A DNA stretch of 64,000 nucleotides from Flavobacteriales bacterium (GTDB lineage: Bacteria; Bacteroidota; Bacteroidia; Flavobacteriales_F; PHOS-HE28): positions 9,637 to 73,636 of the forward strand of contig JABWBQ010000006.1 in the NCBI GenBank assembly GCA_013360395.1. Direction: 5' to 3'. The notes beneath the pieces are model-generated. The model ran no database searches, was not told the DNA's origin, and worked only from the letters and a program-made list of their open reading frames with translations. Shown one piece after another: positions 2,067 through 31,491 of the stretch (within the stretch, counting starts at the first letter, position 1; the number at the start of each line of letters is the position of its first letter). The translations under genes and the position numbers were made by a program.

Positions 2067-5000
2067 TCAGCGCAGGATGGTCACGTGCCCCATGCGCTCC
2101 TGTTCCATGCCCACCCCGCCCTGCGCATCGTCCACGAAACGGTAGCGCATGCGCCACACGTAGATCTCGCTGGGCACTTCGGTGCCGTGCGCGGTGCCGT
2201 CCCATTGGTCCGTGGGGCTGTTGGTCTGCCACAGCACACCGCCCCAGCGGTCGAACACGATGAGCTCCAGGCTGGCCACGTTCCTGCCCACCGGCCCCCA
2301 GGTGTCGTTGATGCCGTCGGCGTTGGGGGTGAAGGTGTTGGGCACGTAGATGCTCGCCGGGCAGAACTCGGTGACCTGCACCGAATCGCGCAGACCGCAA
2401 TGGAAGGTGTTGGTGATGTCCACGAAGTACCAGCCGTACGCGCCGGCAAGGATCACCTGGCTGGTCTGGCCGGAGCTCCAGTCGAAGGTGGAGCCGGGGT
2501 TGCCGGCATCGATCACCACATAGTGCGGGTCCTCGTCCAGACAGGTGAAGATCCGGTGCGCAGGCAGCCCGGTGGGGCGGGGGTTGAACCCGGCCGTCAC
2601 CGCGTCGCTCACGCTGCAATGACCGTTGTCCACGGCCACGCTGTACGTACCGTTCTGCACCACATCGATCGTGCGGGTGGTGGCTCCCGTGCTCCAGGTG
2701 TACGTGGCCCCGGGGTTGCCGGCGTCGAGGGTCAGCACATCGCCCTGGCAGAGCGCCGTGTCCGGACCGAGGTCCACTGCGGGCCAGGGCACGAAGGCCA
2801 CCACGGCGTCGAACGTGCCACTGCAACCCAGGGGGCTGGTCACCACCACCGTGTAGGTGCCCGGTGACGCGGGCGCGATGGTCCGTGTCGCCGCACCCGT
2901 GCTCCACGCGTAGGTGCAACCCGGGTTCCCCGCATCGAGCACCACGGGCTCGCCTTCGCATTCGGTGGCATCGTTCAAAGCATCCACGGGCCCGGGAAGC
3001 AGCGTGATCGACACGCTGTCCACCACCTGACAGGCCGCGTTGCTGACGATCACAACGTAGGTGCCGCTCTGCACGGGCGCGATGGTCTGGGTGGTGGACC
3101 CGGTGTTCCACAGGTAGGTGCTTCCCGGCGCGCCTGCATCCAGGACGATGCCCGTGCCGGCGCAGAGGGTGCTGTCCGGGCCCAGGTCCACCACAGGCGG
3201 GTCCACCAGGGTCACCTGCGCGTCGAAGCTGGCGCTGCAGCCTTGCGCATCGGTCACCTCCACCGTGTAAAGGCCGCTGGTGGTGGCCTGGACCACCTGA
3301 TCGGTGGAACCGGTGCTCCAGGCGAAGGAGGCGCCGGGGTTGCCGGCATCCAGCAGCACCGGTGCCGTGGTGCAGGCCGTGACGTCCTGCAGCTGATCCA
3401 CCGGCATGGGTGCGAAGGTCAGCGTGACCGCATCGGTGCTCGTGCAGCCCTGCGGGCTGGTGGCCGTGGCCGTGTAGGTGCCGCTGCCGGTCGCCTGGAA
3501 CTGCGGACCGGTGCTCCCATTGCCCCAGACCACGGTGTTGCCGGGGCTGTTGGCCTGGATGGTGAAGACCGCAGCACCGCAGAGCAGACTGTCAGGCCCC
3601 AGGTCCAGTGCGGGCAAGGCGTGCAGGAGCACGTTGAACGTCTTGGTGGTCTGGCAACCCTGCGCGTCGGTGATCTCCACCACGTAGGTGCCCGTGGCGG
3701 CCACCGATACCGTTTGCGTCACCGGGCCGTGGGACCAGGCATAGGTGCTTCCGGGGAATCCGGCGTCGAGCACCAGGCTCTGCCCGGCACAGCCGCTCAG
3801 GTTCACCGGGTTCACCATGCTGTCGAACGCATCGGTGATGTGGACCGAGTCGCTCACCGAACAGCCGTTCGCATCGGTGACGGTGACCAGGAAGGACATC
3901 GACGTGTCGGCCATGAGCGAGGGCGTGGCGATGTTGCCGGCGTTGAGCAGGTTGGCCGGCGTCCAGGCGATGGCGAACGGCGCGGGGACGTTGTGCTGCA
4001 CGTCCAGCTGGAATCCGAGCGTGTTGCACAACGTGGTGTCGGGTGTGGCTGCGATGCTGTACGCCGTGGTCACCGCGATGGTGATCGGGGCCTGTACGCT
4101 GCACCCGGACTGGGTGTCCGTGAGCGTGGCGGTGTAGGTGGTGGTGGTGGTGGGCGAGGCCACGGGGTCGGGGATCGTGGCGCTGCTGAGCGTGCCGGCG
4201 TTGTCCCAGACGATCTGCAGGGTCCCGGCGCCCTGGATCACGGCGTTCAACTGGCTGCTCTCCCCCTGGCAGAGGGTGAGGTCGCTGGCGGTGACACCGA
4301 GGCTCAACTGGGGGCCCACGGTCACGACCACGGCATCGCTCGCGCTGCACCCGATGTTGTTCGTGGCCGTGGCGGTGTACGTGGTGGTGGCGGTCGGGCT
4401 GGCCAGCGGTGCGGCGACGACCGTGCTGCTCAGGCTGCCGTTGTTCGGCGCCCAGCTCCACTGAATGCCTTGCCCGCCGCTGGCCGTGGCCTGTAGCTGC
4501 ACCTGGCCTCCGCCGCACAGCACCGTATCGGCGCCGGCGTTGATGCTGAACGCGGGAGCCACCTGGACGAGCACGGGGTCGCTGAACGAACAGCCGTTGC
4601 CGCCTGCGACCTCCACGGTGTACCAGGTGTCGGCCGTGGGCGTGGCCATGGGGTTCGCGATGGTCGCGTTGTTCAACGTGCCCGCCGGGGACCACAACAG
4701 GGACAGCCCGCTGTTATCCACCCGGGTCACGGTGACGTTGTCCAGGGCCCATACGTCCTGTGCCGCACCACTGTGCACGGGCTGCCTCCAGCGGAAGTGC
4801 GTAGCCGTGGACCAGGCCGCAGGAGGTACCGTGAGGGTGACGGAGGTGAAAGCCGGATACTGCGCTTCGTTCAGCGTATGGAACACGGTCCAGGTGGAGC
4901 CGTTCAGGCTGTACTCCACCACCACATCCTCACCGGGTTCGGCTCCGTCGCACGGGGCGCTGCCGGTGGCGATCCAAATGCCGAACACCAGGCTGCCGCC

Positions 5001-7070
5001 CTGGGCCACATCCACCGGGACGGTGCGCGCCGCGCGTGTTCCGGCGGCATTGAACAGCAGGGCGTTGCCCGTGGCCGCTCCGCAGGTCCCGCTCACGTTG
5101 CCGCCTTGCAGTTGCGCCCACAGCGCGGTGGTGCCGTTGTCCAACGGGTCGAAACCGATCACCCGCTGGATGCGCGTGCCCAACTGCACCGCGTCGCCCA
5201 GGCAGATGTTGCTGTCCGCCGCGATGGCCTCCACGCTCTGCACCGTGTTGGGGGTCACCTGCACCAGCACGCTGTCCAGCGCGGTGCCGCAACCCAACGG
5301 ACTGGTCACGCTCAGCTTGAACCAGGTGTTGGCCATCGGGAAGGCCACGGGATCGGGGATGGTCGGGTCGCTCACCAGGGCGGCGGGGGTCCAGCTCAGG
5401 GTGTAGGCACTGGTGTCCAGGTTGGGGGTGGCCCCCAGCTGCACGGGCTGGTACTGGCAGACGGTGGCGGTGTTGGCGCCGTTCGCGGTGGCCTCCACCA
5501 CCGGCGGCACCTGAACGCCCACATGGAAGGTGAACGCCAGGGGGCACGTGGACCCGGGCGCAGTGCCCGAGACCGTATAGCTGTCGTTCGTGGTGGGCGT
5601 GAAGCTGTAGCTCAACCCCGTGGCGAGCACGGTCCCCGGGGTGCTGGCCGCCTCCCACTGGGGATTGTCCATGGGCCAGGGTGCGGTCAGGGTCACCGGG
5701 CCGCTCACGCAAAGCACCGAGTCCTGCGGCACCACCGGCACCACGGTGGCGTTGGCGTTGAAGGCGTAGCTCTCACCGGTGCCGAAGCCGGTGGCGTACA
5801 CGTGGATGCCCAGTGGAGCGGTGACGGTGTGGCTCCCGGCGCCGATGATGCGGCTGGCGTGCGACCAGGTGGGGCACGCGGCGAAGGGGGCGAAGATCCC
5901 GGAGGGGACCGGCACACCGTCCACGGCCACTTGACCCACCACGGCGGTGGGCACCACCAGTTCCACGCGGTGGCCGGTAAGCTGCGGCGAGCTCACCGTG
6001 CTGAAAGTGGTGGCCGTGGTGCTGCGGTCGTCCGGCTCGATCACCAGCATGGAGGGATCGCCGGCGTTCGCGCAGTTGTACCCTTCGTAGATCACCACCA
6101 CCGAGACGGGCGCCGAGGCGCTGATGCAGGCGTCGCCGACGAACCCGTTCAGCTCGTGGGCCTGACCGGCGTTGAGGGTGACGGGAGCCCCGCCGTTCAC
6201 GGTGACGTTGGTGCCGTTCTGGCCGGCGAGGATGCGGACGGTCCCGTTCGCCAGGCCCGTGGGCAGGAAGCTGTGGAATTCGGTGCCCCAGCGTTCCAGC
6301 GGGACCATCTGCTCCACCAGGTGGTCGCAGGCCGGGCAACCCACGGGCACGTTCGCGCACATGCTGCCGCTCAACACCACGAAGGGCCTGCAGGGGCCGC
6401 TGGCGGTGGTGGCACGCACCCGGGTGCCGGTGAGGTCCAGCGACGAAAGGGCGGACTGCACCTGGTAGCTCTGGCCCGCATCCAGCGCCACCGTGAAGGG
6501 TACGCCCGCCGGCCTGCCGCCCACGGTGTTCACGCTCGGGGTGATCTCCACCTCCGTGCCGTCGGCGGTGGCCACGATCAGCAGTTCACTCTTGTAGAAT
6601 TCGTTGAAGCCGGGCAGACCGCGATAGGCTTCCGCGAAGTAGTCCGTGCCCAGGGCCGTCACTGGGAGGACTTGCGTACCGTCCTGGGTGTAGCTCTGGT
6701 AGCTCACGGCCGTCACGGCCACCGGGGAGGCGGCCTGGATCAGCACGCCTTTGCCGGACACCGTCTCCGAGCCGACATGTTCCGCGGTGAGCGGCACGTT
6801 GACCTGCACCACGCTGTTGGCACCCACGCTGAAAGGCTGGCTCCAACCCGCCTGGGGGATGCTCACCGTGCCGGAGGTCGCCGTGGGAGCGCTGATGTAC
6901 AGCCTGGCTTCCTGGGCACCGTAGGCGTTCTGCATGAAGCCGGTCCACAATTCGGTGCCCAGGGTGGGCATGGGGTCGTTCACCTGGGCATGGACCCCGT
7001 TGAAGAACAGGGCCGCCAGCACGCAGGCCAGTGACCGTACGACGCGCGGAGGAGTGGGATGCAGGCTCAT
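2067..7070 (-). CDS. giant T9SS-secreted adhesin-like protein with type B C-terminal sorting domain (gliding motility-associated CTD)
   Basis: Track ORF begins on GTG at 7076; ATG at 7070 gives MSLHPTPPRVVRSLACVLAALFFNGVHAQ (signal peptide). About 8 tandem Ig/PKD-like repeats (LDAGNPGSTYxWSTGxTTQTI). C-terminus FTPNADGINDTWGPVG...GHVTILR matches the type B CTD. The N-terminal 480 aa are paralogous to the next gene. Confidence 0.85.
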   Translation of the reverse strand: MSLHPTPPRVVRSLACVLAALFFNGVHAQVNDPMPTLGTELWTGFMQNAYGAQEARLYISAPTATSGTVSIPQAGWSQPFSVGANSVVQVNVPLTAEHVGSETVSGKGVLIQAASPVAVTAVSYQSYTQDGTQVLPVTALGTDYFAEAYRGLPGFNEFYKSELLIVATADGTEVEITPSVNTVGGRPAGVPFTVALDAGQSYQVQSALSSLDLTGTRVRATTASGPCRPFVVLSGSMCANVPVGCPACDHLVEQMVPLERWGTEFHSFLPTGLANGTVRILAGQNGTNVTVNGGAPVTLNAGQAHELNGFVGDACISASAPVSVVVIYEGYNCANAGDPSMLVIEPDDRSTTATTFSTVSSPQLTGHRVELVVPTAVVGQVAVDGVPVPSGIFAPFAACPTWSHASRIIGAGSHTVTAPLGIHVYATGFGTGESYAFNANATVVPVVPQDSVLCVSGPVTLTAPWPMDNPQWEAASTPGTVLATGLSYSFTPTTNDSYTVSGTAPGSTCPLAFTFHVGVQVPPVVEATANGANTATVCQYQPVQLGATPNLDTSAYTLSWTPAALVSDPTIPDPVAFPMANTWFKLSVTSPLGCGTALDSVLVQVTPNTVQSVEAIAADSNICLGDAVQLGTRIQRVIGFDPLDNGTTALWAQLQGGNVSGTCGAATGNALLFNAAGTRAARTVPVDVAQGGSLVFGIWIATGSAPCDGAEPGEDVVVEYSLNGSTWTVFHTLNEAQYPAFTSVTLTVPPAAWSTATHFRWRQPVHSGAAQDVWALDNVTVTRVDNSGLSLLWSPAGTLNNATIANPMATPTADTWYTVEVAGGNGCSFSDPVLVQVAPAFSINAGADTVLCGGGQVQLQATASGGQGIQWSWAPNNGSLSSTVVAAPLASPTATTTYTATATNNIGCSASDAVVVTVGPQLSLGVTASDLTLCQGESSQLNAVIQGAGTLQIVWDNAGTLSSATIPDPVASPTTTTTYTATLTDTQSGCSVQAPITIAVTTAYSIAATPDTTLCNTLGFQLDVQHNVPAPFAIAWTPANLLNAGNIATPSLMADTSMSFLVTVTDANGCSVSDSVHITDAFDSMVNPVNLSGCAGQSLVLDAGFPGSTYAWSHGPVTQTVSVAATGTYVVEITDAQGCQTTKTFNVLLHALPALDLGPDSLLCGAAVFTIQANSPGNTVVWGNGSTGPQFQATGSGTYTATATSPQGCTSTDAVTLTFAPMPVDQLQDVTACTTAPVLLDAGNPGASFAWSTGSTDQVVQATTSGLYTVEVTDAQGCSASFDAQVTLVDPPVVDLGPDSTLCAGTGIVLDAGAPGSTYLWNTGSTTQTIAPVQSGTYVVIVSNAACQVVDSVSITLLPGPVDALNDATECEGEPVVLDAGNPGCTYAWSTGAATRTIAPASPGTYTVVVTSPLGCSGTFDAVVAFVPWPAVDLGPDTALCQGDVLTLDAGNPGATYTWSTGATTRTIDVVQNGTYSVAVDNGHCSVSDAVTAGFNPRPTGLPAHRIFTCLDEDPHYVVIDAGNPGSTFDWSSGQTSQVILAGAYGWYFVDITNTFHCGLRDSVQVTEFCPASIYVPNTFTPNADGINDTWGPVGRNVASLELIVFDRWGGVLWQTNSPTDQWDGTAHGTEVPSEIYVWRMRYRFVDDAQGGVGMEQERMGHVTILR

Positions 7071-7190
7071 GGCCACCGAAGAGCGGGGTGGTTCGCGCCG
7101 TGCATACGCGATCCGGCCTCCAAGGTTCCCGCCCTGAACGGTGAAGGGCCGGGAAGCTCCCGGCCCTTCACCACGATGCCGCTCCTCCGG

Positions 7191-10100
7191 TCAACGCACC
7201 AACGTCACATGCCCCACGCTCTCCCGTTCCGCCCCCAGGGTGCCGTGGACGTCCTCGATGAACCGGTATTTCAGCTTCCACACGTACACGCCGTCCTGCA
7301 CGTCCGTGCCGTTGCGCTTCCCATCCCAGGCCACCTCGGCGTCCTGGCCCACGAAGATCTGCTCACCCCAGCGGTCGAAGACCCGCATCTCCATGGTCGC
7401 GATGTTGTACCCGTTGGGCATGAACAGGTCGTTCACCCCGTCGCCATCGGGCGTGAAGCTGTTCGGCACCCAGCACTGTGGCGGGCAGAACTCCACCACT
7501 TCGATGGAATCGGTGATGGTGCAGTTCAGCGGGGTGGTGATCTCCACGATGTACCAGCCGTAAGCGTTCACCTCGATGGTCTGCGTCTCCTCGTCGGTGT
7601 TCCACAGATAGGTGCAGCCGGGGTTCCCCGCATCCAGCAGCGTCTTCTTCGGCCAGTGGTCCAGGCAGAGCACTTGCTCCTCTTCGGTGATGTAGTTCGG
7701 CAGGGGGTTGAACACCACCGCCACCGAATCGCGTGTGGTGCAGTAGCCGTTGAACACCTCGGCCCAGACGTCCTGCGTGGTGGTGACGAAGGTGGTCTGT
7801 GCGGTGGACCCGGTGCTCCACACATGGGATTGACCAGGGTTCCCGGCGTCCAGGTGCATGGTGTCCGTGTCGCACAAGGCCGTGTCCGGCCCCAGGTCCA
7901 CCACCGGGAAGGGGATGATGTCGATCACGGCATCCGCCGAATCCACGCACCAAGTGGGCGTGGTCACCACCACCGAGTAGGTCCCGCTCACACTGTCCAC
8001 TTGGATCACCTGCGTGGTCTCCCCCGTGCTCCACAGGTGGCTGCTGCCCGGGTTGCCCGCATCGAGCGGGATCGTTTCGCTGATGCACACGGCGGTGTCG
8101 CTGAGGACGATCACGGGCAGCGGGTCGAACACCACGTCGATGCTGTCGCTGTTCACACAGTTGTTCCCGTCGGTCACCTCCACCTGGTAATTGTCGTCCG
8201 TATTCACGGTGATGGTCTGGGTGGTGGCCCCGGTGTTCCACAGGTACTGGCTTCCGGGGTTGCCGGCGTCCATGGTCCAGTTCTGGCCGATGCACAACGA
8301 GGTGTCCGGACCAAGGGTGACCACCGGCAGGGGGTCCACCGTCACGTTCGTGGTGAAGGTGGCCTGGCAGCCGAGCGTGTCCGTGATGGTCACGGTGTAG
8401 GCCCCGGCCGTCGAGACCGTGATGGTCTGGGTGGTGGCGTTGGTGCTCCAGTCGTACGTGCTTCCCGGGTAGCCCGCATCGATCACCATGCTCTCGCCAG
8501 CGCACAACGATGAGTCGGCGATGAAGGTGAGGTCGTCGAAGGATACCGTGATGTTCACGGTGTCGCGGGCCGAACAGCCCAGGGCATCCTGCACCACCAC
8601 GATGTATTGCGCGGTGGAGTCGAAGGTGATCACCGGGTTGGCGGTGTTGGCACCTGTCAACTGGTTGGTCGGTGTCCAGCTGATGACGGCGCCCGGCACG
8701 TTGTGCTGCACGTCGAGCACGAAGCCCACCGGGTCGCAGAGCGCGGTGTCCGCCGTGGCCGTCACCACGTAGGCCGTGCTCACCGTGATCTCGATGTCCT
8801 CGGTGAGCACGCAGCCGCTGATGGTGTCGGTGACGGCCAGCACGTAGGTGGTGGTGGTGAGCGGCGTGGCCGTGGGGTCCTGCAGCGTGGCGTCGTCCAG
8901 GGACCCGGCCGGCGTCCAAGCGTACACCAGGTTGGTGGTGTTGCCGTTGATGGTGGCGTCCAGCAGCGTGCTCTCACCCTGGCACAGGTCGTCGTCCAGG
9001 GTGGTGACGGTGAGCCCCAGCAATTGGTTCACCGTGATCGTCACACTGTCGGTGGCGCTGCAGCCCTGGCCGGTGGTCACCGTCACGAAGTACTCCGTGG
9101 TGGTGGCCGGTGTGGCGATGGGCGATTGTACGAAGGTGGCCGAAAGGGTGCCGTTGTTGGGCGTCCACGTCCAGGTGTGGTTGGTGCCGGAGCTCGGAAC
9201 GGCGTTGAGCTGGATGCCCCCCAGGTCGCAGATGGCCGTGTCCGGCGTCATGGCGATGCTGAAGGGCGCGCCCACCTCGATGTACACCGAATCCTGATAG
9301 CTGCACTGCGTGCCGGTGAGCGTGCTCTGGACATGGTACCAGCCCGTGGTCGTCGGGTAGGCCATCGGGTTCGGGATGTTGGCGGCGCTCAAGGTGGCGG
9401 CGGGCGACCAGTTGATGGTGAGCCCGGTGGTGCCCTGGGCCCCGATGGCCACGTTGTCCAGGCTCCAGTTGTCGTTGCCCGGGCCGCTGCTGTTCAGCTG
9501 GCGCCAACGGAACAGCGTGGCGGCGGTCTGTGCCGCCGGTGGGATCGGATAGGTCAACGTGGTGAAGTTGGGGTACAGGTATTCCCACAGGGTGGCCATC
9601 ACCGTCCAGCTGCCGCCGCCGTTGGTGGAATACTCCAGCACCACGTCCTCGCCCGGGTCCGCATCGTCGCACGGCGGGGCCGCCGCCCCGATCTTGATGG
9701 CGAAGCTCACGCTGCCCCCGCTCGCCACGTTCATGGCGGCCGTGGTGGCCTGCCGCGGGTTCACACCGTCGAAGTACAGCGCATCGCCGAACACCGATCC
9801 GCAGGCATTGCTGATGCTGCCGCCCTGCACCGCGTTCCACATGGAGGTGAGCACCATGTCCAGGGGGTCCTCGGCGATGATCTGGTGCACCTGCAGGTCC
9901 AGTTGCGAGGAATCACCCTGGCACAACGCATCCACGGCCGTGCTGGCCTCATAGAGCAGGATGTCCCCCTGGATCACATCGATGTACACGCTGTCCAGGC
10001 TCACCGCACAACCGTTCAGGGTGCTCACGCTCACGTAGAACCAGCCGCTCTGGGTGGGCGTGGCCACGGGGTTCTGCAACGAGCCGTCGTTCAGCTGGGC

Positions 10101-11795
10101 GTCCGGCCACCAGTTGTACAGGTAGGTGCCCGGTGGGTTCACCAACACGTCCAACTGCACCGTCTCGTACTCGCAGATGGTGATCGTGGCGGGCGAAGGC
10201 ACGCCGTTCGCCGTCGGGGTCAGCTGGGGCGGCGTGTCCACCTCCACACTGAAGAAGTACTGCTCCTCGCACTGGCTCAGGTTCTCGTAACCCGTGACCA
10301 CGTACACGTCGCTGCCCGGCGGGGTGAAGGTGTACGTCATCCCGTAATGCAGAGTGTCGGTGGGGTCCGAAAGCGCCGTCCAGAAGGGGTTGAAGAGCGG
10401 GCTGGGCGGGGCCAGCGTCAGGGTGCCCGTGCTGTCCACACCGCAGAACACCGAGTCGATGTTCAGGGGCGGCAGCGGGGTGTAGGAGCCCACCGAGTAG
10501 GCGTAGCTCTCGGCGCTGCCCATGCCGTACACGTAGGCCGACAACCCGCCCGGACAGCTCAGCGTGTGGCTGCCCTGGGTGAGCGGCACGCTGGCGTAGG
10601 CCGCCGTGGGGCACGCCGGGTAGGCGGTGAAGCTCGCCGGGGGTATCAGGGTGCCGTCCAGGGAGACCTGGTTGATGTTCGCCGTCTCGGTGACGATGTT
10701 CAGGTAGTGGTTGGTGATCACCGTGGACGACACCGTGCTGAAGGTGATGTTGTCGATCTGCTGTTCCTCGGCGTTGAGGATCAGCAAGGCCGGGTCGCCG
10801 TTGCCGCTGCAGGTGATGCCCTCCATGAGCTGCGCCACGCTGAAAGGCACGTTGCCCTCGAAGCAGGCCGCCTGGCCAAAGGCGTTCACCTCGGTGAACT
10901 GCCCCGCGTTCAGGTTGATGGGCGCCCCGCCGTTCACCGTCACCACCGTGCCGTTCTGATCGGCCAGGATGCGGTAGGTGTAGCCCGTGGTGGTGGAGTA
11001 GGGCACCGAGAAATACTTGCGGCCCCACACGTTGCGCGGCAGGTTCTGTTCATACACGTGGTCGCAGGCATAACAGCCCTGCGGGATGTTGGTGCACACC
11101 GAACCGCTGAAGACCGCGAAGGGTCGGCAACTGCCGCTTTGGGCCGTGCCCACCACCGTGGAGCCGGTGAAGTCGTCCGTGATGTTGTTCCCCGCCGCCT
11201 TCACCTGGTAGGTCTGGCCCGAATCGAGCTGCACCGTCCACGGCACCCCCGCCGTGTGGCCACCGGCGGTGTTCACCGTGGTGGTGATCTCCACCTCGGT
11301 GTCGTCCTGCGTGGACACGATGAGGAACTCGGAGGCCAGGCCCGTGACGCCCGAAAGCCCACCGTAGGCATGGATCCGGTATTCGGTGCCCAGGGACTGC
11401 ACCGGGTACACCGTGGTGCCGTCGGCCGTGTACTGCTCGAAGTTGATGGCGAAGACCGCCACGGTGTCCTGCGTCTGCACCAGCACCGACTTGTTGTCGA
11501 TGATGTCCGATTGGAAGTGCATGGCCGTGGCGATCGGGATCGTCACCGTGGTGGTGACGTTGGGGCTCACGGAGAAGGCCTGTGTCCAGCCCACCAGCGG
11601 CATGGTCACCACACCCACGGTGGCCACCGGGGAGCTGATGAAGATGTCCAGGCTCTGGGTGGGGTTGCCCTGGTAGTTCTGCATGAAACCGAGCCAGAAC
11701 TCCTTGCCCATTGTGGGTACCACACCCTGGCCGTGGGCCTGGCCCAGGCTGAGCGCCACCACCACGGGCAGCGCGCGCATGATCGTTCGCATCAT
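7191..11795 (-). CDS. giant T9SS-secreted adhesin-like protein with type B C-terminal sorting domain (paralog of 2067..7070)
   Basis: Track ORF starts on TTG at 11858; ATG at 11795 gives MMRTIMRALPVVVALSLGQAHGQ (signal peptide). N-terminal domain GKEFWLGFMQNYQG... is homologous to the neighbouring gene's GTELWTGFMQNAYG.... Repeated LDAGNPG..W.TG.TTQTI modules. C-terminus FTPDGDGVNDLFMPNG...GHVTLVR. Confidence 0.85.
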   Translation of the reverse strand: MMRTIMRALPVVVALSLGQAHGQGVVPTMGKEFWLGFMQNYQGNPTQSLDIFISSPVATVGVVTMPLVGWTQAFSVSPNVTTTVTIPIATAMHFQSDIIDNKSVLVQTQDTVAVFAINFEQYTADGTTVYPVQSLGTEYRIHAYGGLSGVTGLASEFLIVSTQDDTEVEITTTVNTAGGHTAGVPWTVQLDSGQTYQVKAAGNNITDDFTGSTVVGTAQSGSCRPFAVFSGSVCTNIPQGCYACDHVYEQNLPRNVWGRKYFSVPYSTTTGYTYRILADQNGTVVTVNGGAPINLNAGQFTEVNAFGQAACFEGNVPFSVAQLMEGITCSGNGDPALLILNAEEQQIDNITFSTVSSTVITNHYLNIVTETANINQVSLDGTLIPPASFTAYPACPTAAYASVPLTQGSHTLSCPGGLSAYVYGMGSAESYAYSVGSYTPLPPLNIDSVFCGVDSTGTLTLAPPSPLFNPFWTALSDPTDTLHYGMTYTFTPPGSDVYVVTGYENLSQCEEQYFFSVEVDTPPQLTPTANGVPSPATITICEYETVQLDVLVNPPGTYLYNWWPDAQLNDGSLQNPVATPTQSGWFYVSVSTLNGCAVSLDSVYIDVIQGDILLYEASTAVDALCQGDSSQLDLQVHQIIAEDPLDMVLTSMWNAVQGGSISNACGSVFGDALYFDGVNPRQATTAAMNVASGGSVSFAIKIGAAAPPCDDADPGEDVVLEYSTNGGGSWTVMATLWEYLYPNFTTLTYPIPPAAQTAATLFRWRQLNSSGPGNDNWSLDNVAIGAQGTTGLTINWSPAATLSAANIPNPMAYPTTTGWYHVQSTLTGTQCSYQDSVYIEVGAPFSIAMTPDTAICDLGGIQLNAVPSSGTNHTWTWTPNNGTLSATFVQSPIATPATTTEYFVTVTTGQGCSATDSVTITVNQLLGLTVTTLDDDLCQGESTLLDATINGNTTNLVYAWTPAGSLDDATLQDPTATPLTTTTYVLAVTDTISGCVLTEDIEITVSTAYVVTATADTALCDPVGFVLDVQHNVPGAVISWTPTNQLTGANTANPVITFDSTAQYIVVVQDALGCSARDTVNITVSFDDLTFIADSSLCAGESMVIDAGYPGSTYDWSTNATTQTITVSTAGAYTVTITDTLGCQATFTTNVTVDPLPVVTLGPDTSLCIGQNWTMDAGNPGSQYLWNTGATTQTITVNTDDNYQVEVTDGNNCVNSDSIDVVFDPLPVIVLSDTAVCISETIPLDAGNPGSSHLWSTGETTQVIQVDSVSGTYSVVVTTPTWCVDSADAVIDIIPFPVVDLGPDTALCDTDTMHLDAGNPGQSHVWSTGSTAQTTFVTTTQDVWAEVFNGYCTTRDSVAVVFNPLPNYITEEEQVLCLDHWPKKTLLDAGNPGCTYLWNTDEETQTIEVNAYGWYIVEITTPLNCTITDSIEVVEFCPPQCWVPNSFTPDGDGVNDLFMPNGYNIATMEMRVFDRWGEQIFVGQDAEVAWDGKRNGTDVQDGVYVWKLKYRFIEDVHGTLGAERESVGHVTLVR

Positions 11796-11935
11796 GATCC
11801 GTCGGTTCGTTCGGGCCACAAGGTCGGCCGGTGCTGAAAGGTATTGCAGGTTGCGCAAACCGGTCCAGCGGCCGGTGGCGGACCCACCTCATGACGCAGG
11901 TCGGGGCCGGGACGTTGCCAGCCCATCGCACATCA

Positions 11936-13501
11936 TCAGGGCAGGGTCCAGGTGATCTCCAGGTCCCAGCCAAGGCGCACCTGCACCGGCTCCGGATGTG
12001 TGAGCACCACCTCGGGCAGCAGGCCCTCGCGCCAGCGCCCGGGGTCCCAGCGCCCGTTGGCGTTGGCGTCGCGCACCGCTCGGATGCTGTACGTCCCGGG
12101 GGACAACCCTCCCCACAGCACGGTCCGCGTACCGCCCTGCAGCACCGCCCGTCGCACCGCCCGGCCCTGGCCGTCCTGCAACAGGGCGATCAGGCTTCCG
12201 CCGGGGCCGTCGATGGTGAGCTTCAGGCTGCCCACCGTCCCCGGGTCGAAGGCCCCGAGCGTCACCGTGGTGCTGTCGTTCCAGGCGCCGAACACATCGT
12301 GTACCGCCTTGGGTCTCAGCAGGATGGGGCCTCGGTCCCCACCTTGGTGCCGCACCCACAACAACCGTCGGTCCGTCGTGTCCCGGTCCACCGCGAACCG
12401 CACGCTGTCCGCACCGGGGCCGATGGCCACCACCCGTTCCGCATCCACCCGGTCGATGGGCCGGGAGGACCGCAGGGGCACGCCGACCGGCGTGGGCGCA
12501 CCGGCGCGCAGCACCAGGTGGAAGGGCGGACGCAGCGGACGCCGGTAGGTCACCGTGTCCGCCGCGGCGCTGTCCGCCTGCACGATCACCCGCACGCCGT
12601 GCAGCAGGGTGGTGTCCGTAGGCCAGGCCAGCACCGTATCGCGGTCGGAGCCCCACTCCAACAGCCACGCCGGCCGCGGGCCGTCCGCCGGGGTGCGCAC
12701 CGCGAGGCTGTCCACAGGCTTGCTGAAGACCAGCTGCAGCGCGCCTTCCGGCAGCACCCGGTCGTCCATCACCTGCGGTCGGGGGCCCGGTTCGCGGTAA
12801 AGCTCCAACGTGTGCCGGATCGTGTCGCCGGGGAGTGCCACCTCTGCCGGGTCGAAGGCGATCTCCTCCCCGGGCAGGTCGTAGCGCAGGTTGCCGTTCA
12901 GGTCGCGCAGGGCGCGCAGGTTGTAGCGACCGCCGGCCAGGTAGCGCAGCCTGAAGCGGCCTTCGGCATCGGTGCGTGCGATGTACCGCGGCCGCCCGGC
13001 GGTGAACGCCGCGGTGTCGCCGGCCTCGTACAGCAGCACGGCCACGTCCCGCTCCACCGCGCCGGTGTATGCATGGCGCACCGTGCCCGCCACCTCCAGG
13101 CTGTCCACCGCATCGCCTGTGGCCACCACATGCACCAGGTCTTTCGCGGCGTTGCCTTCGGTGAGGTCCACCACGGCCTGGCCCAGGTTGATCACATAGG
13201 TGGTGCCCGCCAGCAGCGGCCCCGGCAGGTCGATCCGCACTTCACGCGGACCGGTGCGGGTCACTTCCAAGGGCGTCTCCAACGGCGGGGAGACCACCAC
13301 GTTCTCGCGCACCTTGCGCAGGTCGATCCGTTCGTCGAACCGCAGGATGAGGGCCCCGCCGGCAAAGCCCGTGGTGCCGCTCGGCGGTTCGGCGGACACC
13401 AATTGTGGCGGGGTCTCGTCCTTGGGGCCGCCGACCGGTTCGCGCACCTGGGCGCAGGCCGAGAGCGCGAGCAACAGAACGGTCGCCGCGTACCGGCTCA
13501 T
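11936..13501 (-). CDS. Ig-like domain-containing lipoprotein (SbsA/Big-type Ig domain plus carboxypeptidase-regulatory-like domains)
   Basis: Residue 185 of track ORF 11936..14053 is M of MSRYAATVLLLALSACAQ (lipoprotein signal, lipobox LSAC), start 13501. The upstream 184 aa are Arg/Gly-rich junk. Followed by TPPQLVSAEPPSGTTGF..., an Ig-like N-terminal domain. The ATGA overlaps the stop of the upstream GAF gene. Confidence 0.7.
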   Translation of the reverse strand: MSRYAATVLLLALSACAQVREPVGGPKDETPPQLVSAEPPSGTTGFAGGALILRFDERIDLRKVRENVVVSPPLETPLEVTRTGPREVRIDLPGPLLAGTTYVINLGQAVVDLTEGNAAKDLVHVVATGDAVDSLEVAGTVRHAYTGAVERDVAVLLYEAGDTAAFTAGRPRYIARTDAEGRFRLRYLAGGRYNLRALRDLNGNLRYDLPGEEIAFDPAEVALPGDTIRHTLELYREPGPRPQVMDDRVLPEGALQLVFSKPVDSLAVRTPADGPRPAWLLEWGSDRDTVLAWPTDTTLLHGVRVIVQADSAAADTVTYRRPLRPPFHLVLRAGAPTPVGVPLRSSRPIDRVDAERVVAIGPGADSVRFAVDRDTTDRRLLWVRHQGGDRGPILLRPKAVHDVFGAWNDSTTVTLGAFDPGTVGSLKLTIDGPGGSLIALLQDGQGRAVRRAVLQGGTRTVLWGGLSPGTYSIRAVRDANANGRWDPGRWREGLLPEVVLTHPEPVQVRLGWDLEITWTLP

Positions 13502-13986
13502 TCGAAGAGGGGTTCCAGCAGGGCGCCCACCTGTGCCAGGGCGTGGGCGTCCACTTCGCTGAAGTCGTTGTGCACGCTGCTGTCGATGTCGAGCACGGCG
13601 GCCACGCGCCCGCTGCGATCGCGCAAGGGCACCACGATCTCCGACCGGCTCAGGGGGCTGCAGGCGATGTGCCCGGGGAATTGCGCCACATCGGGCACCA
13701 CCAGCGTGCGTTCCTGTTCCCAGGCCGCGCCGCATACACCCTTGCCGAAGCCGATGCGCATGCAGGCCACCGGCCCTTGGAAGGGGCCCAGCACCAGCTC
13801 GGCGCCCAGCACGCGGTAGAAACCGACCCAATGCCAGCCGAAGGCCTGGTGCAGGGCGGCGCTCACGTTGGCCATGGCGGCGATGGGGTCGCGCTCCTCG
13901 GCCAGCAGCGCCCGCAATTGGGGCATCAGCGCGGCGTAGAGCGATACCCGGTCCGTGGTGGCGGGCAGCGTAAGCGTGGTCTCCAT
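13498..13986 (-). CDS. GAF domain protein (free methionine-R-sulfoxide reductase-like, YebR/MsrC family)
   Basis: 162 aa single GAF domain (METTLTLPATTDRVSLYAAL...GKGVCGAAWEQERTLVVPDVAQFPGHIACS...) with the conserved Cys pattern of fRMsr. ATG start; 4-nt overlap with the lipoprotein gene. Confidence 0.75.
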   Translation of the reverse strand: METTLTLPATTDRVSLYAALMPQLRALLAEERDPIAAMANVSAALHQAFGWHWVGFYRVLGAELVLGPFQGPVACMRIGFGKGVCGAAWEQERTLVVPDVAQFPGHIACSPLSRSEIVVPLRDRSGRVAAVLDIDSSVHNDFSEVDAHALAQVGALLEPLFE

Positions 13987-14164
13987 GCAGGGGGGAAGGG
14001 CCGCAAAGGTATCGGAGGTGGCGGGGTGGGGCGGACCGGTCGTTATAGATCAAGGAACGGTGGATAACACGGATTCAACTCATAAACGCAATCGGATAGA
14101 CCGACAAGAAGGCTGATCATTTTTTCAGGAGGAGGAGAGGCTCTCGCCCCTCGCTCCTCTCTGA

Positions 14165-14770
14165 ATGGAGGATACGGCCTACCCTTGTGCTGGGGTCCGA
14201 TCCGTTGCAAGAATGAGCCATATCACCGATGAGCAAAGGTGCATCATACAGCGCATGAAGAAGGCAGGTCGCCAGCAGAAACAGATCGCCGAGGCCATCG
14301 GCAAGTCTGCCTCCGCGGTGAGCCGCGAGCTCAGGCGCAACTGCGATGGGCGCAGCGGGGAGTACAACGCCGACCTGGCCGCGCGCAAGAGTGCCCAACG
14401 CAAGAGGGACAAACCCAAGGCAGTGCGCTTCACCGCTGCCATGCGTGCCGAAGTGGAGCGGCAACTGGCCCAAGAGTTCAGTCCGGAGCAGATCGTGGGC
14501 ATGGCAGAGCGCGAGGGCCGCGACATGGTCTCCCACGAGCGCATCTACCAGCATGTGTGGCAGGACAAGAAGCGAGGCGGGACCTTGCACGAACACCTGC
14601 GCACACGCGGCAAGCGCTACCGCAAGCGCGGAGCGGCCAAGGACAGCAGGGGCATCATCGTGGGCAGGGTGGATATCGAACAGCGGCCGGCCGTGGTGGA
14701 GCAGCGCAAGCGCTTCGGCGACCTGGAGATGGACACGATCATCGGCAAGGGCCACCAGGGTGCCGCACTT
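14165..14770 (+). mobile_element. IS30-family transposase, N-terminal fragment (remnant)
   Basis: MEDTAYPCAGVRSVARMSHITDEQRCIIQRMKKAGRQQKQIAEAIGKSASAVSRELRRN...DLEMDTIIGKGHQGAAL is the HTH plus start of the DDE region of IS30 transposases (alternative ATG at 14213). Beyond about 14770 the frame becomes Arg/Pro junk and homology jumps to another frame. A lower-GC segment at 14060..14130 lies upstream. Confidence 0.7.
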
Positions 14771-15749
14771 TCCGCAGGACACCATGTACCTCACCGGTTA
14801 CCGGGGCACCCTGTGCGGCTACGACAGCAGCTGCGTGTTCGCTTACGTGGGCGATACCATCGTGCCCAGCCCCTACCGGGCGCCGGTGCTGCACCACGGT
14901 CCCACCAGCTACGTGGGCTTCGCCTTCAAGTACCAGGGCGTGCCCTACATCACCGGCCTGTTCTACGACCCCCTGCAAGGGCAGTACTACAGCTTCATGC
15001 GCTGGAACGGAGCGGCCTGGGAGGCTGTGCCGGGGTGGAGCACCCTGGACCCCATCAAGGACGTGCTGATCAAGGATGGCTGGCTGTACGTGTGCGGGTG
15101 GTTCTTCGAGGCGGGCGGCGCGCCGGGCAACATGGTGGCGCGCTTCAACGGAACCCAGTGGCAGACCTTGGGCAGCGGGCTTCTGTACGACCTGCCGGCC
15201 AGCAGCTCGGGTGTGGCGCTGGACCTGCACGCGTGGAACGGCGACCTGTACGTGGCCGGGCAGTTCAACTACGCCGGTGGGGTGCCGGCGGAGAACGCCG
15301 CGCGCTGGGACGGCAGCCGCTGGTGCGGCCTGGGGGGCAGCTATGCCATGCAGACCCCGGGTGGGAAAGCGAACGGGTTCACCGTGTGGCGCGATGAACT
15401 GTACATGTCAGGCGGCTTCGTCACCATCGACGGGGACACCCTGTGGCACGTGGCGCGGTGGCTGGGCCAGGTGGAGAACTGCAGCGCCCCGGTGGCGGTG
15501 ATGGAAACGGCGGAGGAGGACCAAGCCCCGTGGTTGATCCCCCTGGAGCCCGGCCGGTGGCGACTTCGACTGCCGACAGGTGTGGTGGGCCAGTTGGCCG
15601 TGTGGGATGCGCAAGGCCGCTTGGTGCTGATGCAAAGCAATGCCCGTGACGGCCACGTTGTGGACCTGGCCGCAGCTGCACCAGGCGTGTATCTGGCGCG
15701 TTTGGAGGAAGCGAACGGTGCGGTGCGATCGGTTAAGGCCCTGCGATGA
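14771..15749 (+). pseudogene. 5'-truncated T9SS cargo gene (beta-propeller-like repeats plus type A C-terminal sorting domain)
   Basis: Frame-3 ORF 14346..15749 makes sense only from about DTMYLTGYRGTLCGYD onward. It has repeated G.F.....W.G..W (propeller-like) and ends WRLRLPTGVVGQLAVWDAQGRLVLMQSNARDGHVVDLAAAAPGVYLARLEEANGAVRSVKALR (type A CTD). There is no signal peptide or N-terminus; it abuts the IS30 fragment. Confidence 0.6.
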
Positions 15750-15763
15750 TGCGTTGATCGCCC

Positions 15764-16450
15764 TCACGCCGTCGCCGCCGTGCATACGCTCACCCGCAGG
15801 TCGGGCACGCACAGCAACGCACGGATGCAGCCTTCCAGGGTGGCGCCGGTGGTGACCACATCATCAATGAGCAGCACATGCGCGCCGGCGAGGGGCCGGG
15901 TGTCGCCGAGCTCGAAGGCCTCCTTCACGTTGGTCCAGCGTTCCCAGCGGCCTTTGCGGGTCTGGGTGGTGGTGCGCACCACGCGCATCAGCCCCTGGTC
16001 GGGCAGGCACAGGGGCCACAGCTCGCGAAAGCCGTCCACCAGCACCTGGCTCTGGTTGTAGCCGCGCTCGCGCAGCCGCCGCGGATGCAGCGGTACGGCC
16101 AGCACATGGTCCACGGTGGCGAATCGGGGACTGGTGCGCAGCGCCTCGGCCATCCACCGGCCCAGCTCGAGCCCCACGGCCTGGTCGCCTTGGTATTTCA
16201 GCCGGTGCAGCATCCGTTGCACGCGGCCCCTGCGGTTGAACTGCAACAGGGCTGCGGCCGCCTGCACCGCCACTTTGCCGTGGAAGAGCCGTTCCACCCG
16301 GTTGTCCGCCTGCAGGTGCATGCCGGTGCGCGGCAGGTCGTGCAGGCAGGGCAGGCACACGGCCCTCTCGTGCGCCATCAACGGGCGGTCGCAGGCACTG
16401 CAGCAGCGCGGAAGGAAGAGGTCGGCAGCATCCAGCAGCCAGCGCCCCAT
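15764..16450 (-). CDS. comF: ComF family protein (phosphoribosyltransferase-type, ComFC)
   Basis: LLDAADLFLPRCCSACDRPL...CLPCLHDL zinc-finger-like N-terminus and C-terminal PRTase motif VLLIDDVVTTGATL. Start chosen at M18 of the track ORF (16450), which fits the typical ComFC N-terminus; ATGs at 16474 and 16501 are alternatives. Confidence 0.8.
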   Translation of the reverse strand: MGRWLLDAADLFLPRCCSACDRPLMAHERAVCLPCLHDLPRTGMHLQADNRVERLFHGKVAVQAAAALLQFNRRGRVQRMLHRLKYQGDQAVGLELGRWMAEALRTSPRFATVDHVLAVPLHPRRLRERGYNQSQVLVDGFRELWPLCLPDQGLMRVVRTTTQTRKGRWERWTNVKEAFELGDTRPLAGAHVLLIDDVVTTGATLEGCIRALLCVPDLRVSVCTAATA

Positions 16451-16560
16451 CCCCGTCGTCGTATGCCGGACCATCCCGGTCGCTGTGTTGATAATTGTCA
16501 TCGAAAGCCCGGAAGCCCGCGGACCGCGGCGGTAATTTAGCCGCCCGAGCCCGAACCCTC

Positions 16561-17475
16561 ATGGACCAGACAACCAGCAACCCCCAACCCTCCAAGCCCC
16601 GTTCCAACGTCGCCCTGCTGGCTTTGGTGGTGCTCCTGCTCATCAGCAATGTGGTGATGCTCTACCTGTTGATGCAGAGCAAGCGCCAGGAAGAGGCCAC
16701 CCAGAGCGAGGTGGTGAAGGTGTCCAGCGAGAAGGAGAACGTGACGCGCATGCTGGAGGACATGCTGGCCCAGTATGACACACTGGAGACCGAGAACGAG
16801 CAGCTGCGCGTGGAGATGGACGCCCAGAAGCAGCAGATCGAGAACCTGCTGGAACAGGTGAAGAAGGGCAACTACAGCCTGGCCAAGGCCCAAAAGGAGG
16901 CCGCCACCCTGCGCAAGATCATGAAGGGCTATGTGGCCACGATCGACTCGCTCAACCAGGTGAACCTGCAACTCACGGCCGACAAGGCCACCCTGACGCA
17001 GGAACTGGGGACCGTGAAGGGCCAGAAGGACGCGTTGGAACAGCAGAGCGCCGAACAACAGGCCCTGATCGCCAAGGGCTCGGTGCTCACCGCCACCACC
17101 ATCAGCGCCGGCGCGGTGATGCTGCGCAACAACGGCAAGCAGGTGGATACCGACCGGGCCAAGAAGGCCGAGATGGTGAAGTGCTGCTTCACCCTCGGGG
17201 AGAACCGCGTGGCCCGCACCGGCGACAAGACGCTGTACATGCGCATCATCAGCCCGGACGGCCAGGTGCTGCCGGCCAGCGAGGCCAACAACCGCTTCCA
17301 GTTCGATGGCGTGGAGGGCGAGTTCAGCGTGAAACGCGAGGTGAACTACCAGGGCGTGCCGGTGGATGCGTGCATGTTCTGGACCGCCAGCGGCGAGATG
17401 CGCACCGGCCAGTACATCGTGGAGGTGTACGAGAGCGGCGGCAAGGTGGGCCGCGCCACCTTCGATCTGAAGTAG
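16561..17475 (+). CDS. membrane-anchored coiled-coil protein (hypothetical)
   Basis: Track ORF starts on TTG at 16495; first ATG 16561 gives MDQTTSNPQPSKPRSNVALLALVVLLLISNVVMLYLL (N-terminal TM). A long coiled coil follows (EKENVTRMLEDMLAQYDTLETENEQLRVEMDAQKQQIENLLEQ), then a C-terminal beta-rich domain. Divergent from comF. Confidence 0.6.
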   Translation: MDQTTSNPQPSKPRSNVALLALVVLLLISNVVMLYLLMQSKRQEEATQSEVVKVSSEKENVTRMLEDMLAQYDTLETENEQLRVEMDAQKQQIENLLEQVKKGNYSLAKAQKEAATLRKIMKGYVATIDSLNQVNLQLTADKATLTQELGTVKGQKDALEQQSAEQQALIAKGSVLTATTISAGAVMLRNNGKQVDTDRAKKAEMVKCCFTLGENRVARTGDKTLYMRIISPDGQVLPASEANNRFQFDGVEGEFSVKREVNYQGVPVDACMFWTASGEMRTGQYIVEVYESGGKVGRATFDLK

Positions 17476-17482
17476 GCCGCGG

Positions 17483-20400: not shown

Positions 20401-20926
20401 TGTCCGTGATGGAAGCCTGCACCTGGATGCGGTCGGTGATGCGCCCGCTCAGCTCCAGGTTCAGCGAGGAGTTCACCGACAGGTCCTGGTTGTTGCCGAA
20501 GAGGATGCCCCGCGAGATGCTGCCGCTCTTGTTGAGCCCGGCGTTGCCGAAGAGGTCCTCGCGTTCGGCCGGTGCCACGTACTTGAAGGGGTCCCGCCGG
20601 TCGGGGTCCTCGCTCAACAGCCGCGTGCGGTCCTTGTGGCGCCGCTCGGCGGCGAACAGCAGGGGCCACACGCGGTAGCGGGCCGTGAGCGTGTCGCCGG
20701 CGATGCCGGGGGCCACCCACAAGCGCGCCCGGTAGGGGTCGAGCACGAAGGCACTATCGGGCAGCCGCACGGTGCCGTGCCACAGGGACAGGCTGCCCGG
20801 GGCGATCCCCAGGGTGTCCAGCGCGATGGTGTCGCCGGTGAGCACCACGGTGCGCATGCGGCGGTTGTCGCCGGGGCCCTGCCCGCGGACCGGGAGCGCG
20901 GCCAGCAGCACCAGCCACAGGGGCAT
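17483..20926 (-). CDS. large outer-membrane beta-barrel protein (hypothetical, about 1148 aa)
   Basis: Track ORF starts on GTG at 21118; M65 (20926) gives MPLWLVLLAALPVRGQ (signal peptide). Alternating amphipathic beta-strand pattern throughout. Terminal residues ...VRAFF with C-terminal Phe are typical of OMP barrels. Confidence 0.6.
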   Translation of the reverse strand: MPLWLVLLAALPVRGQGPGDNRRMRTVVLTGDTIALDTLGIAPGSLSLWHGTVRLPDSAFVLDPYRARLWVAPGIAGDTLTARYRVWPLLFAAERRHKDRTRLLSEDPDRRDPFKYVAPAEREDLFGNAGLNKSGSISRGILFGNNQDLSVNSSLNLELSGRITDRIQVQASITDNSIPIQAEGNTLELQDFDQVFIKLFEDDWELIAGDFVLQRPNSHFLTYLKKSKGLSFNHRARGARATNTLGTSVAISKGKFARNVIQGVEGVQGPYRLRGDGGETFIVVLSGTERVFIDGQQLVRGQENDYVIDYNTAELTFTARRLITKDRRITVEFQYSDRNYMRTLLRLDDTWTRGRTTLRLNVFSEQDHKGQPLQQDLTDQEQRALAEAGDDPLAAVVPGVDTVAYNPDQVLYKAVDSLGYSPVYVYSTSPDSARHRITFSAVGAGKGDYVQQEFTPNGRVYRWVAPDTVNGAVVHRGDHAPVRVLVAPRSQQVVTVGADHRTVGGLRLSTELAYGRYDRNTFSGRDAADDQAFAARVKADQAIPLRAADSTWALELGLESEALTASFTPVERYRAVEFERNWNAVGRPLDGDQLLAALGVGLRAGKAGRLRYVLNTFQVRDRYAGWRHELLSDLHPGRFDLTGTASLLTTTSPVRTGFLRHKARLARRMRWFTIGVQDEHEHNRFLADTSDALLAGSYRFHDWEVFIQSRDTARTTFRVGGGQRYDQGLRDGGLARSTVATAGTATLGVGRDARHRLATTFTYRQLRIVDSTLTAQRPEDTYLMRIDHDLTLGKGVAVWDLFYELGSGLEQQREFLYVEVPAGQGLYIWNDYNGNGIKELNEFEQANFGYEANYVRVFVPGTTYARTFSNQLSASLDLRPSVAWGGRTGLRRFLAKFSDLASFRSDRKTSTADLGQALDPFRIDPADTLLTAFTSALRNTLFYDRTSPVWSVDHTFQSDRTKTLLLNGFESRLRELDQVRIRWNITRQWTTDLEGEAGRVANASDLLSGRTFNIRQYGVRPRVTWRPNTDLRAALSYRYTDKLNREELGGEAATVQNLGLEARWNTAGKGSIQLNLDLVDIRYDGDPNTSLGNEMLGGLKVGTNWTWSLNIQRRLSRNLQVDLTYNGRKSEHTPAVHVGGAQVRAFF

Positions 20927-21099
20927 GCGCACGATGGCCCGGAAGCGGGCCGGGCACGTGGCGGCGATGGACGGGTGGGGCCCCAAGGGCGGGAAAATTA
21001 CCCAGCCCGTCCGCGTCCCCGCCCCCATCAAGATCCGATCGTTGATGAGCGGTACGGCGCCCCTCGGGCGGCTGCGGCACGCCCGGGTACATTTGGCCG

Positions 21100-23566: not shown

Positions 23567-23661
23567 GGCGCTCGATGAACGGTGTGTTCACAAAAAAGGT
23601 TGCGCCCCGGCGGTCCGAAAGCCCCGGGACGGGACCTTTGCACGACCCGAAAGGTACTGCC

Positions 23662-25804: not shown

Positions 25805-25870
25805 CAGGCCGGCGTCCGCCGGTGAACGGGCCGCCAGGGGAGGAGGTCCGCCCAAGGGAGAGCCTTGCAC

Positions 25871-25896
25871 GACCGGAAGGGACCGCTTTCCGGTCC
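25871..25896 (+). terminator. hairpin downstream of DAHPS gene (possible terminator)
   Basis: gaccggaa-gggaccgctt-ttccggtc is a perfect 8-bp inverted repeat 67 nt after the stop; no U-tract, so weak. Confidence 0.3.
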
Positions 25897-31440: not shown

Positions 31441-31491
31441 AGCGCCGGTACCTTCGCCGTCCCGCCGCCATCAGGCGGTGGCGCACAACGC

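Follow-up and report, generated by a model that had tools for sequence, protein, structure and literature searches.

We analyzed a 64-kb window of DNA (the whole stretch studied here, from contig JABWBQ010000006.1 of an uncultured Flavobacteriales metagenome-assembled genome (MAG) of 68% GC) in which four genes lie together on the minus strand between positions 2067 and 13986. These open reading frames (ORFs), all announced in a preliminary description of the sequence and all confirmed here, encode a GAF-domain free methionine-R-sulfoxide reductase (fRMsr), a lipoprotein with a Big_5 immunoglobulin (Ig)-like domain and two giant proteins, B upstream and A downstream. The GC content of the window was 67.6%, and coding frames were distinguished cleanly by their high third-position GC. 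Our main finding concerns the giants, which are probably orphan T9SS (type IX secretion system) adhesins: they end in a C-terminal domain (CTD) of type B, belong to a known and widely annotated family, and would depend on a shuttle encoded elsewhere in the genome. Related loci, numbered L001 onwards, were viewed through fetched flanks of at most 10 kb.

Architecture and family of the giant proteins

Both giants share one domain order: a signal peptide, an IgGFc_binding domain, a Reelin-subrepeat-B insert, an Ig_7 domain, repeats of about 70 aa and a type-B CTD, all encoded on the minus strand. Giant B extends from 7191 to 11792 when translated from the ATG at 11792 (1533 aa), or to 11858 from a TTG (1555 aa); giant A extends from 2067 to 7070 from its ATG (1667 aa), or to 7076 from a GTG (1669 aa). 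By inspection, their hydrophobic N-termini, ending in VHAQ for giant A and AHGQ for giant B, correspond to Sec signal peptides. The N-terminal region of about 450 aa is centred on the IgGFc_binding domain (PF17517), found at 10524-11423 in giant B (E=1.5e-64) and at 5790-6683 in giant A (E=1.3e-57). An AlphaFold2 (AF2) model of the N-terminal 520 aa of giant B, covering this region, was all-beta, with a predicted local distance difference test score (pLDDT) of 88.5 and a predicted template modelling score (pTM) of 0.85. The preliminary description had also noted a MAM-like insert. An insert with the motif PGEDVV(V/L)EYS is indeed present in both giants, but it scores as a Reelin subrepeat B, a jelly-roll domain, and not as MAM: it occupies 9441-9824 in giant B (motif PGEDVVLEYSTNGGGSWTV; E=8e-29) and 4728-5105 in giant A (motif PGEDVVVEYSLNGSTWTV; E=1.9e-26). 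Repeat analysis recovered the arrays of LDAGNPG repeats described earlier, with five tandem copies of the form LDAGNPG...W.TG.TTQTI, each of about 70 aa, in giant B (7470-8483) and seven of the same type and length in giant A (2349-3770). Most of the additional length of giant A over giant B comes from its two extra repeats.

The CTD of giant B (7194-7469) scored 46.4 bits against TIGR04131 (cutoff 35) and 53.1 bits against CHU_C (cutoff 27), and that of giant A (2070-2348) scored 58.5 and 49.7 bits against the same two models. The match ends about 16-21 residues before the last residue of the giants, and the two CTDs are 47% identical. Neither giant matched a type-A model (TIGR04183/PF18962) at E<=0.01, and these models were capable of detection, as they found another protein of the window. 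This second T9SS substrate, encoded at 25633-28821 on the plus strand, is an FG-GAP/ASPIC-UnbV protein of 1062 aa that combines an Ig_7 domain with a type-A sorting domain (TIGR04183); its presence indicates that the organism uses the T9SS, with both CTD classes. The earlier assignment of the giants to type B, for which a TIGR04131 search had been proposed as the check and a type-A score as the contrary outcome, was thus upheld. SprB repeats (PF13573) were absent from the Pfam matches of both giants; they were seen in the cargo of L063, by a Pfam scan, and of L209, among precomputed Pfam matches. Overall, the domain architecture suggests that the giants are surface adhesins.

Giants A and B align collinearly over 1457 residues with 44% identity, in agreement with the tandem duplication proposed earlier, which proved to be old. 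The family to which they belong gave 481 matches at E<=1e-10, and NCBI names it 'gliding motility-associated C-terminal domain-containing protein [Flavobacteriales bacterium]'; one member, P0001, is 91% identical to giant B. In a neighbour-joining tree built on the first 1050 residues of the giant homologs, giant A belonged to a clade with 22 members, most of them 1620-1690 aa long, and giant B to one with 56 members, most of them 1500-1560 aa long; each clade drew on many organisms. Because both paralog clades span many species, the tandem duplication is real but ancient, and has been stably inherited.

The surroundings of the giants are conserved as well. On their 3' side follow a convergent CN_hydrolase gene and then an aminotransferase gene, and the stop codons of giant A and of the CN_hydrolase gene are 3 nt apart (2063-2067), which leaves no space for an intergenic terminator. 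The B-then-A tandem with the identical CN_hydrolase and aminotransferase flank was found in L007, L213, L214 and L215, and the tandem likewise in L009; the remaining relatives carry a single giant, or one short and one long. A paralogous giant, L004, lies at an unrelated locus of the genome that also contains L005, with no lipoprotein gene alongside. Most simply, this pattern is explained by an insertion of the giants that placed a conserved housekeeping block on one side of them and the convergent genes for CN_hydrolase and aminotransferase on the other. On this view an adhesin gene was added, in an ancestor of this Flavobacteriales lineage, downstream of the block formed by comF, fRMsr and the Big_5 lipoprotein gene, and a long-past duplication in tandem gave rise to clades B and A.

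Search for a PorP/SprF-family shuttle

The absence of a PorP/SprF gene next to the giants, noted in the preliminary description, extends to the whole window. Pfam and NCBIfam scans of the 64 kb gave no PF11751 match in any sizeable ORF. We also used a PorP/SprF hidden Markov model (HMM) of 115 sequences, obtained from 120 metagenomic loci that were collected by using an N-terminal motif as a DNA pattern; the motif was seeded from a genuine PorP/SprF gene in L045 (PF11751, E=1e-72). This HMM recovered the known genes in L045, L209 and L210, and it gave no match at E<=10 in the stop-to-stop ORFs of at least 60 aa of the window or in any giant-homolog locus. Nothing was found in the window by a regular expression for the PorP N-terminal motif or by a single-sequence phmmer search. 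ORFs 16495-17475, 17483-21118 and 22823-23566 and the gap ORFs were considered as hidden PorP/SprF genes and rejected, Pfam and NCBIfam having found none, and the 1211-aa product of 17483-21118 scored insignificantly as SprA (14.5 bits against a cutoff of 200). No PorE-like anchor (OmpA_C with PD40/TPR) was detected in or adjoining the cluster. An OmpA-family gene at 23575-24612 was examined for this role and rejected: it is MotB-like, lacks PD40/TPR, and is found on the opposite strand at a distance of about 10 kb.

We then considered ten further genomes with giant homologs, represented by L004/L005, L006, L007, L009, L037, L211, L213, L214 and L215 together with the truncated loci L010 and L012. 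No PorP/SprF gene was present within the fetched flanks of the giant homologs in these 10 relatives (11 genomes including the window). In GCA_009612815.1, there is one giant, in syntenic position (L211), and some 50 kb from it on the same 1.6-Mb contig is a PorP/SprF cluster (L209; WBZS01000004.1, 994-1015 kb). The order of this cluster is PorP/SprF, SprB-repeat cargo of 3122 aa, PorP/SprF, CHU_C cargo of 2637 aa, PorP/SprF and PorE-like OmpA, and at least two of the three PorP/SprF genes are directly downstream of other type-B cargo. The presence of such a cluster near an orphan giant shows that the lineage owns PorP/SprF paralogs, and linked pairs for other cargo.

In a PorP-anchored sample, a type-B CTD gene was found directly upstream of 109 of the 119 assessable PorP/SprF genes. 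The other 10 (about 8%) had no adjacent cargo, and such genes could serve orphan cargo. The L045 gene mentioned above is itself an orphan, lying at 14466-15386 on the minus strand of a Bacteroidales MAG, between lysS and pnp and with no adjacent type-B cargo. Conversely, the SprB-repeat CHU_C gene of L063, from a Saprospiraceae genome, is followed by a CNNM transporter gene and not by PorP/SprF. These two loci show that cargo and shuttle genes commonly occur without being linked. The preliminary description had stated that type-B cargo normally requires a partner encoded immediately downstream; this holds as the usual arrangement, with documented exceptions in orphans that use an unlinked shuttle (PMC12618676).

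In Flavobacterium johnsoniae, 9 of the 12 type-B cargo genes adjoin an sprF-like gene and three are orphans, Fjoh_1123 and Fjoh_1720 as well as Fjoh_4934, all of which were found experimentally to be collected by the unlinked SprF-like shuttle Fjoh_1677 (PMC12618676). The CTDs of these orphans share >44% identity among themselves, and shuttles also accept non-cognate CTDs of significant homology (PMC12618676). The arrangement seen in the window can therefore not be regarded as anomalous, as was initially supposed: orphans are known in F. johnsoniae, and the giant family is unlinked in all 10 other genomes.

By analogy with F. johnsoniae, we infer that the giants are secreted through the T9SS with the help of a PorP/SprF-family shuttle. 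Each giant would be exported by Sec by means of its N-terminal signal peptide, its type-B CTD would be recognised at the SprA translocon, and it would be collected by a shuttle of the PorP/SprF family whose gene lies at another place in the genome. One shuttle probably serves both giants, because their CTDs are 47% identical. The proteins would then be displayed as surface adhesins, each a long stalk of Ig repeats with distal IgGFc_binding and jelly-roll domains, with or without being loaded on the gliding track.

It could be argued that the giants need no PorP/SprF shuttle, and that they end up in the medium or are taken care of by PorV or some other pathway; the missing linkage would then be the sign of a different fate in secretion. 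In favour of this, no member of the giant family has a linked shuttle gene, and the CTD scores of the giants are moderate (46 and 58 bits against the cutoff of 35). We nevertheless consider this quite improbable. For each of the type-B CTDs examined in F. johnsoniae, secretion of a highly produced fusion could be detected only with a co-produced PorP/SprF-like shuttle, and type-B secretion was independent of PorV (PMC12618676). In addition, the CTDs of the giants match type-B models only, and none of type A.

The upstream genes and their transcription

The lipoprotein gene (11936-13501, minus strand) encodes a protein of 521 aa that has a Big_5 Ig-like domain at its N-terminal end, identified by Pfam, and the lipobox LSAC, identified in the sequence. 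By inspection, its N-terminus, MSRYAATVLLLALSAC-AQ, combines a signal peptide with a lipobox cysteine, and this residue, Cys16, is invariant in 4/4 homologs and nearly so in 52. The AF2 model (pLDDT 91) is a chain of about five beta-sandwich domains with no beta-barrel resembling PorP/SprF, and in a fold search its PDB matches were generic Ig-like only. We searched for relatives with a four-sequence alignment as query, retaining one genome per species. The family was present in 80 species genomes, its members being full-length at 25-30% identity and 517-590 aa long throughout, with no lineage-specific extra domain. It occurs in Flavobacteriaceae, Sphingobacteriales, Bacteroidales (including Bacteroides and Phocaeicola), Saprospiraceae, Chitinophagales and one Chlorobiota MAG. 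In many Bacteroidota, the lipoprotein gene is immediately preceded by comF, and neither a GAF gene nor a giant is present. A giant is directly downstream in just 5 of the 72 assessable lipoprotein loci, and all five are from Flavobacteriales-type MAGs of 60-67% GC. The lipoprotein is thus a phylum-wide Bacteroidota gene, usually adjoining comF. Given the low proportion of loci with a giant, it is not a dedicated partner of the giants, and it is unlikely to be a substitute partner.

The preliminary description had suggested the lipoprotein as an alternative anchor or chaperone for the giants. In the strongest form of this proposal, it would have been recruited as their dedicated anchor or chaperone, replacing a linked PorP/SprF within one functional unit. 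The adjacency of lipoprotein and giant genes is conserved in 11 genomes ranging from 42% to 68% GC, the spacer between them can be as short as 41 nt (in L006), and no giant-family member is linked to a PorP/SprF gene. All the same, such a recruitment appears very improbable. Full-length members of the family occur throughout the phylum in taxa that carry no giant, among them Bacteroides and Phocaeicola, and Bacteroidaceae are devoid of a T9SS (PMC11611037). In addition to the small share of loci with a giant, the uniform size of the lipoproteins and the lack of a PorP/SprF-like barrel in the model, L013 and L033 keep comF, GAF and lipoprotein genes with no giant, and the L004 giant has no neighbouring lipoprotein. 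Co-option within this lineage, whereby the lipoprotein would anchor giants of the IgGFc_binding type, escort them in the periplasm or serve in their assembly, seems to us just as improbable. It would explain both the adjacency that survives over this GC range and the lack of PorP/SprF linkage and, if true, would offer type-B cargo a route that is independent of PorP or auxiliary to it.

The fRMsr gene (13498-13986, minus strand) encodes a protein of 162 aa with a single GAF domain (Pfam GAF/GAF_2). It matched the fRMsr of Neisseria meningitidis (PDB 3MMH) with E=4.9e-45 over residues 10-162, and further matched YebR of Escherichia coli (1VHM) and the yeast fRMsr (3KSF). Its three cysteine motifs (AC.RI, GVCG and HIACS) were conserved in the alignment. 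It therefore has the size of about 160 aa, the single GAF domain, the homology to solved fRMsr structures and the catalytic cysteines of an fRMsr. Enzymes of the 3MMH/YebR family reduce free methionine-R-sulfoxide in the cytoplasm, and the present protein has no signal peptide.

The ancestral upstream neighbour of the lipoprotein gene is a ComF-family phosphoribosyltransferase gene, located in the window at 15764-16501 on the minus strand (TIGR00201 comF, E=1e-20). A GAF gene between comF and the lipoprotein gene was found only in the present lineage and a few others, and L013 and L033 are among the loci where this order exists without a giant. In the window, comF and fRMsr are held apart by a 1.8-kb insertion (14054-15763) of lower GC (about 63%), with a transposase ORF at 14165-15397 on the plus strand. 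This ORF matches a transposase of the IS30/IS4351 family over its N-terminal half (NF033563, E=2.5e-35, profile positions 1-150 of 267) and is 52% identical to Riemerella IS4351-like transposases. As the DDE half is missing, the insertion is a decayed insertion sequence (IS). The remnant was absent from L005-L007 and L213-L215 and present in L001-L003, which are metagenome contigs with identical genes; on these contigs, gene callers annotated an antisense ORF in place of the transposase. Upstream of comF, a gene pair (16495-21118 in the window) is kept across the lineage (L001, L005, L007, L211, L213 and L215). It consists of a divergent gene at 16495-17475 (plus strand) for a coiled-coil protein of about 305 aa annotated DUF8429/DUF8428, and of the gene at 17483-21118 (minus strand) for a protein of about 1200 aa (1211 aa here) with no Pfam family; an SBP_bac_5 gene follows the pair.

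The fRMsr and lipoprotein genes overlap by an ATGA, as described previously, the ATG of the lipoprotein gene lying over the fRMsr stop codon. This 4-nt overlap is kept in L006, L007, L214 and L215, which suggests that the two genes are translationally coupled. The spacers of 78 and 114 nt given earlier for the downstream genes hold with the longest ORFs; with gene-caller starts, taken from metagenome contigs carrying identical genes, they become 143 and 120 nt. The -7 promoter consensus of Bacteroidota is TAnnTTTG. A motif that matches it perfectly, TACCTTTG, is present at 14004-14011 on the minus strand, 17 nt upstream of the fRMsr ATG, and in L007 the identical motif precedes the GAF gene by 24 nt. 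A near-match, TACCTTTC, is present at 11836-11843 on the same strand, 43 nt upstream of the giant B ATG, and L009 has TATTTTTC at a similar distance upstream of giant B. Both motifs of the window are putative promoter elements.

Between the giants, a perfect 15-bp GC-rich stem-loop (7140-7172, minus strand) starts some 20 nt past the stop codon of giant B. It resembles a terminator but has no clear U-tract, its predicted free energy is -31.8 kcal/mol, and the z-score of the spacer is -4.85. Equally strong hairpins of other sequences occupy the same position in L007, L009, L214 and L215, and that of L213 is weaker (strong in five of the six species). Since they lack U-tracts, these hairpins may be terminators, attenuators or stabilising 3' structures. 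A sigma-70 promoter scan returned nothing, its model being uninformative for Bacteroidota, and Rfam and tRNA scans of the window found no RNA genes.

Taken together, the conserved hairpin, the promoter-like motif of giant B and the coupling of fRMsr and lipoprotein genes make two or three transcription units more likely than one four-gene operon. The single operon of the preliminary description is thus the less likely reading, a strong hairpin being conserved in position between the giants. Nor does a methionine-sulfoxide reductase head an adhesin operon: fRMsr is a lineage-specific insert into the comF-lipoprotein pair, with its own promoter-like motif. That the four genes form one operon linking methionine-sulfoxide repair functionally to adhesins is scarcely credible, despite their common strand, the ATGA overlap and the order fRMsr, lipoprotein, giant conserved in the lineage, given that the enzyme acts on a free cytoplasmic substrate, that L013 and L033 have an fRMsr-lipoprotein pair but no giant, and that giant B has a promoter-like motif upstream and the hairpin behind it.

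Other genes of the window were annotated in passing. The region 29702-46210 contains a molybdenum-cofactor/formate-dehydrogenase-like set, with MoeA, MobA, FdhD, a molybdopterin oxidoreductase (989 aa, with Fe-S domains) and a NuoF-like flavoprotein, and among its genes are also a Reg_prop/HisKA_3 sensor kinase and a LuxR-type response regulator. At 39074-39763 (plus strand), a DUF433/DUF5615 (PIN-like) pair resembles a toxin-antitoxin module, and a similar pair lies by the aminotransferase gene in L215.

Weighing the orphan-cargo reading against known systems

Several points weigh against our interpretation of the locus. An unlinked shuttle in the present organism is presumed, the search having covered the 64-kb window, and all the PorP/SprF genes seen in GCA_009612815.1 adjoin other cargo, with no orphan shuttle among them. 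The lipoprotein-giant adjacency is retained over genomes that differ widely in GC (from 42% to 68%) and whose lipoproteins are only about 30% identical, and such persistent adjacency can indicate a lineage-specific functional coupling. The function as adhesins is read from the domain architecture, fold searches having given only generic Ig-like matches. Finally, a consensus terminator scan did not call the hairpin between the giants, since it has no U-tract, and read-through transcription of all four genes is possible. With these points taken into account, orphan type-B adhesins served by a shuttle encoded elsewhere remain the probable explanation.

On this reading the locus is an ordinary one, of little importance beyond annotation, as it adds two more members to an abundant and annotated family of type-B T9SS proteins. 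The whole giant family falls in the class of orphan cargo recently characterised in F. johnsoniae, a class that is useful for cataloguing type-B cargo sharing unlinked shuttles. As the family is widespread in wastewater Flavobacteriales, it would provide a convenient test set for the prediction of CTD-shuttle pairs. The conserved comF-fRMsr-lipoprotein block and the phylum-wide Big_5 lipoprotein are mild curiosities.

Compared with the annotated family of Flavobacteriales MAGs, the giants have the same domain order (PF17517, PF21471, PF19081, PF13585), fall in the same two length classes (about 1530 aa and about 1660 aa) and occupy the same position between a Big_5 lipoprotein gene and a CN_hydrolase gene. 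They differ in essentially nothing; the window adds the IS30-like remnant upstream of fRMsr. The fRMsr resembles 3MMH and 1VHM in consisting of one GAF domain, about 160 aa long, in which the catalytic cysteines are conserved, and differs in its place between comF and the lipoprotein gene.

With the SprB-SprF and Fjoh_3952-Fjoh_3951 pairs, the giants share the class of CTD signal, the secretion system and the nature of giant repetitive surface cargo. In contrast to the SprB-SprF pairs, they have no PorP/SprF gene after the cargo and no PF13573 repeats. They also differ from the SprB-repeat cargo of L209 and L063, in which IgGFc_binding and Reelin-subrepeat-B domains were not detected.

The closest parallel is offered by the orphans of F. 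johnsoniae. There the shuttle has been identified as Fjoh_1677, whereas the present one is proposed by analogy. Both sets consist of large predicted adhesins with a TIGR04131/CHU_C type-B CTD, and in both there is no downstream porP/sprF-like gene and no porE-like gene in the operon. The identity between CTDs is also similar (47% here, >44% there), the two sets being likened by description and not by a comparison of their sequences. In both systems, cargo with similar CTDs plausibly share one shuttle.

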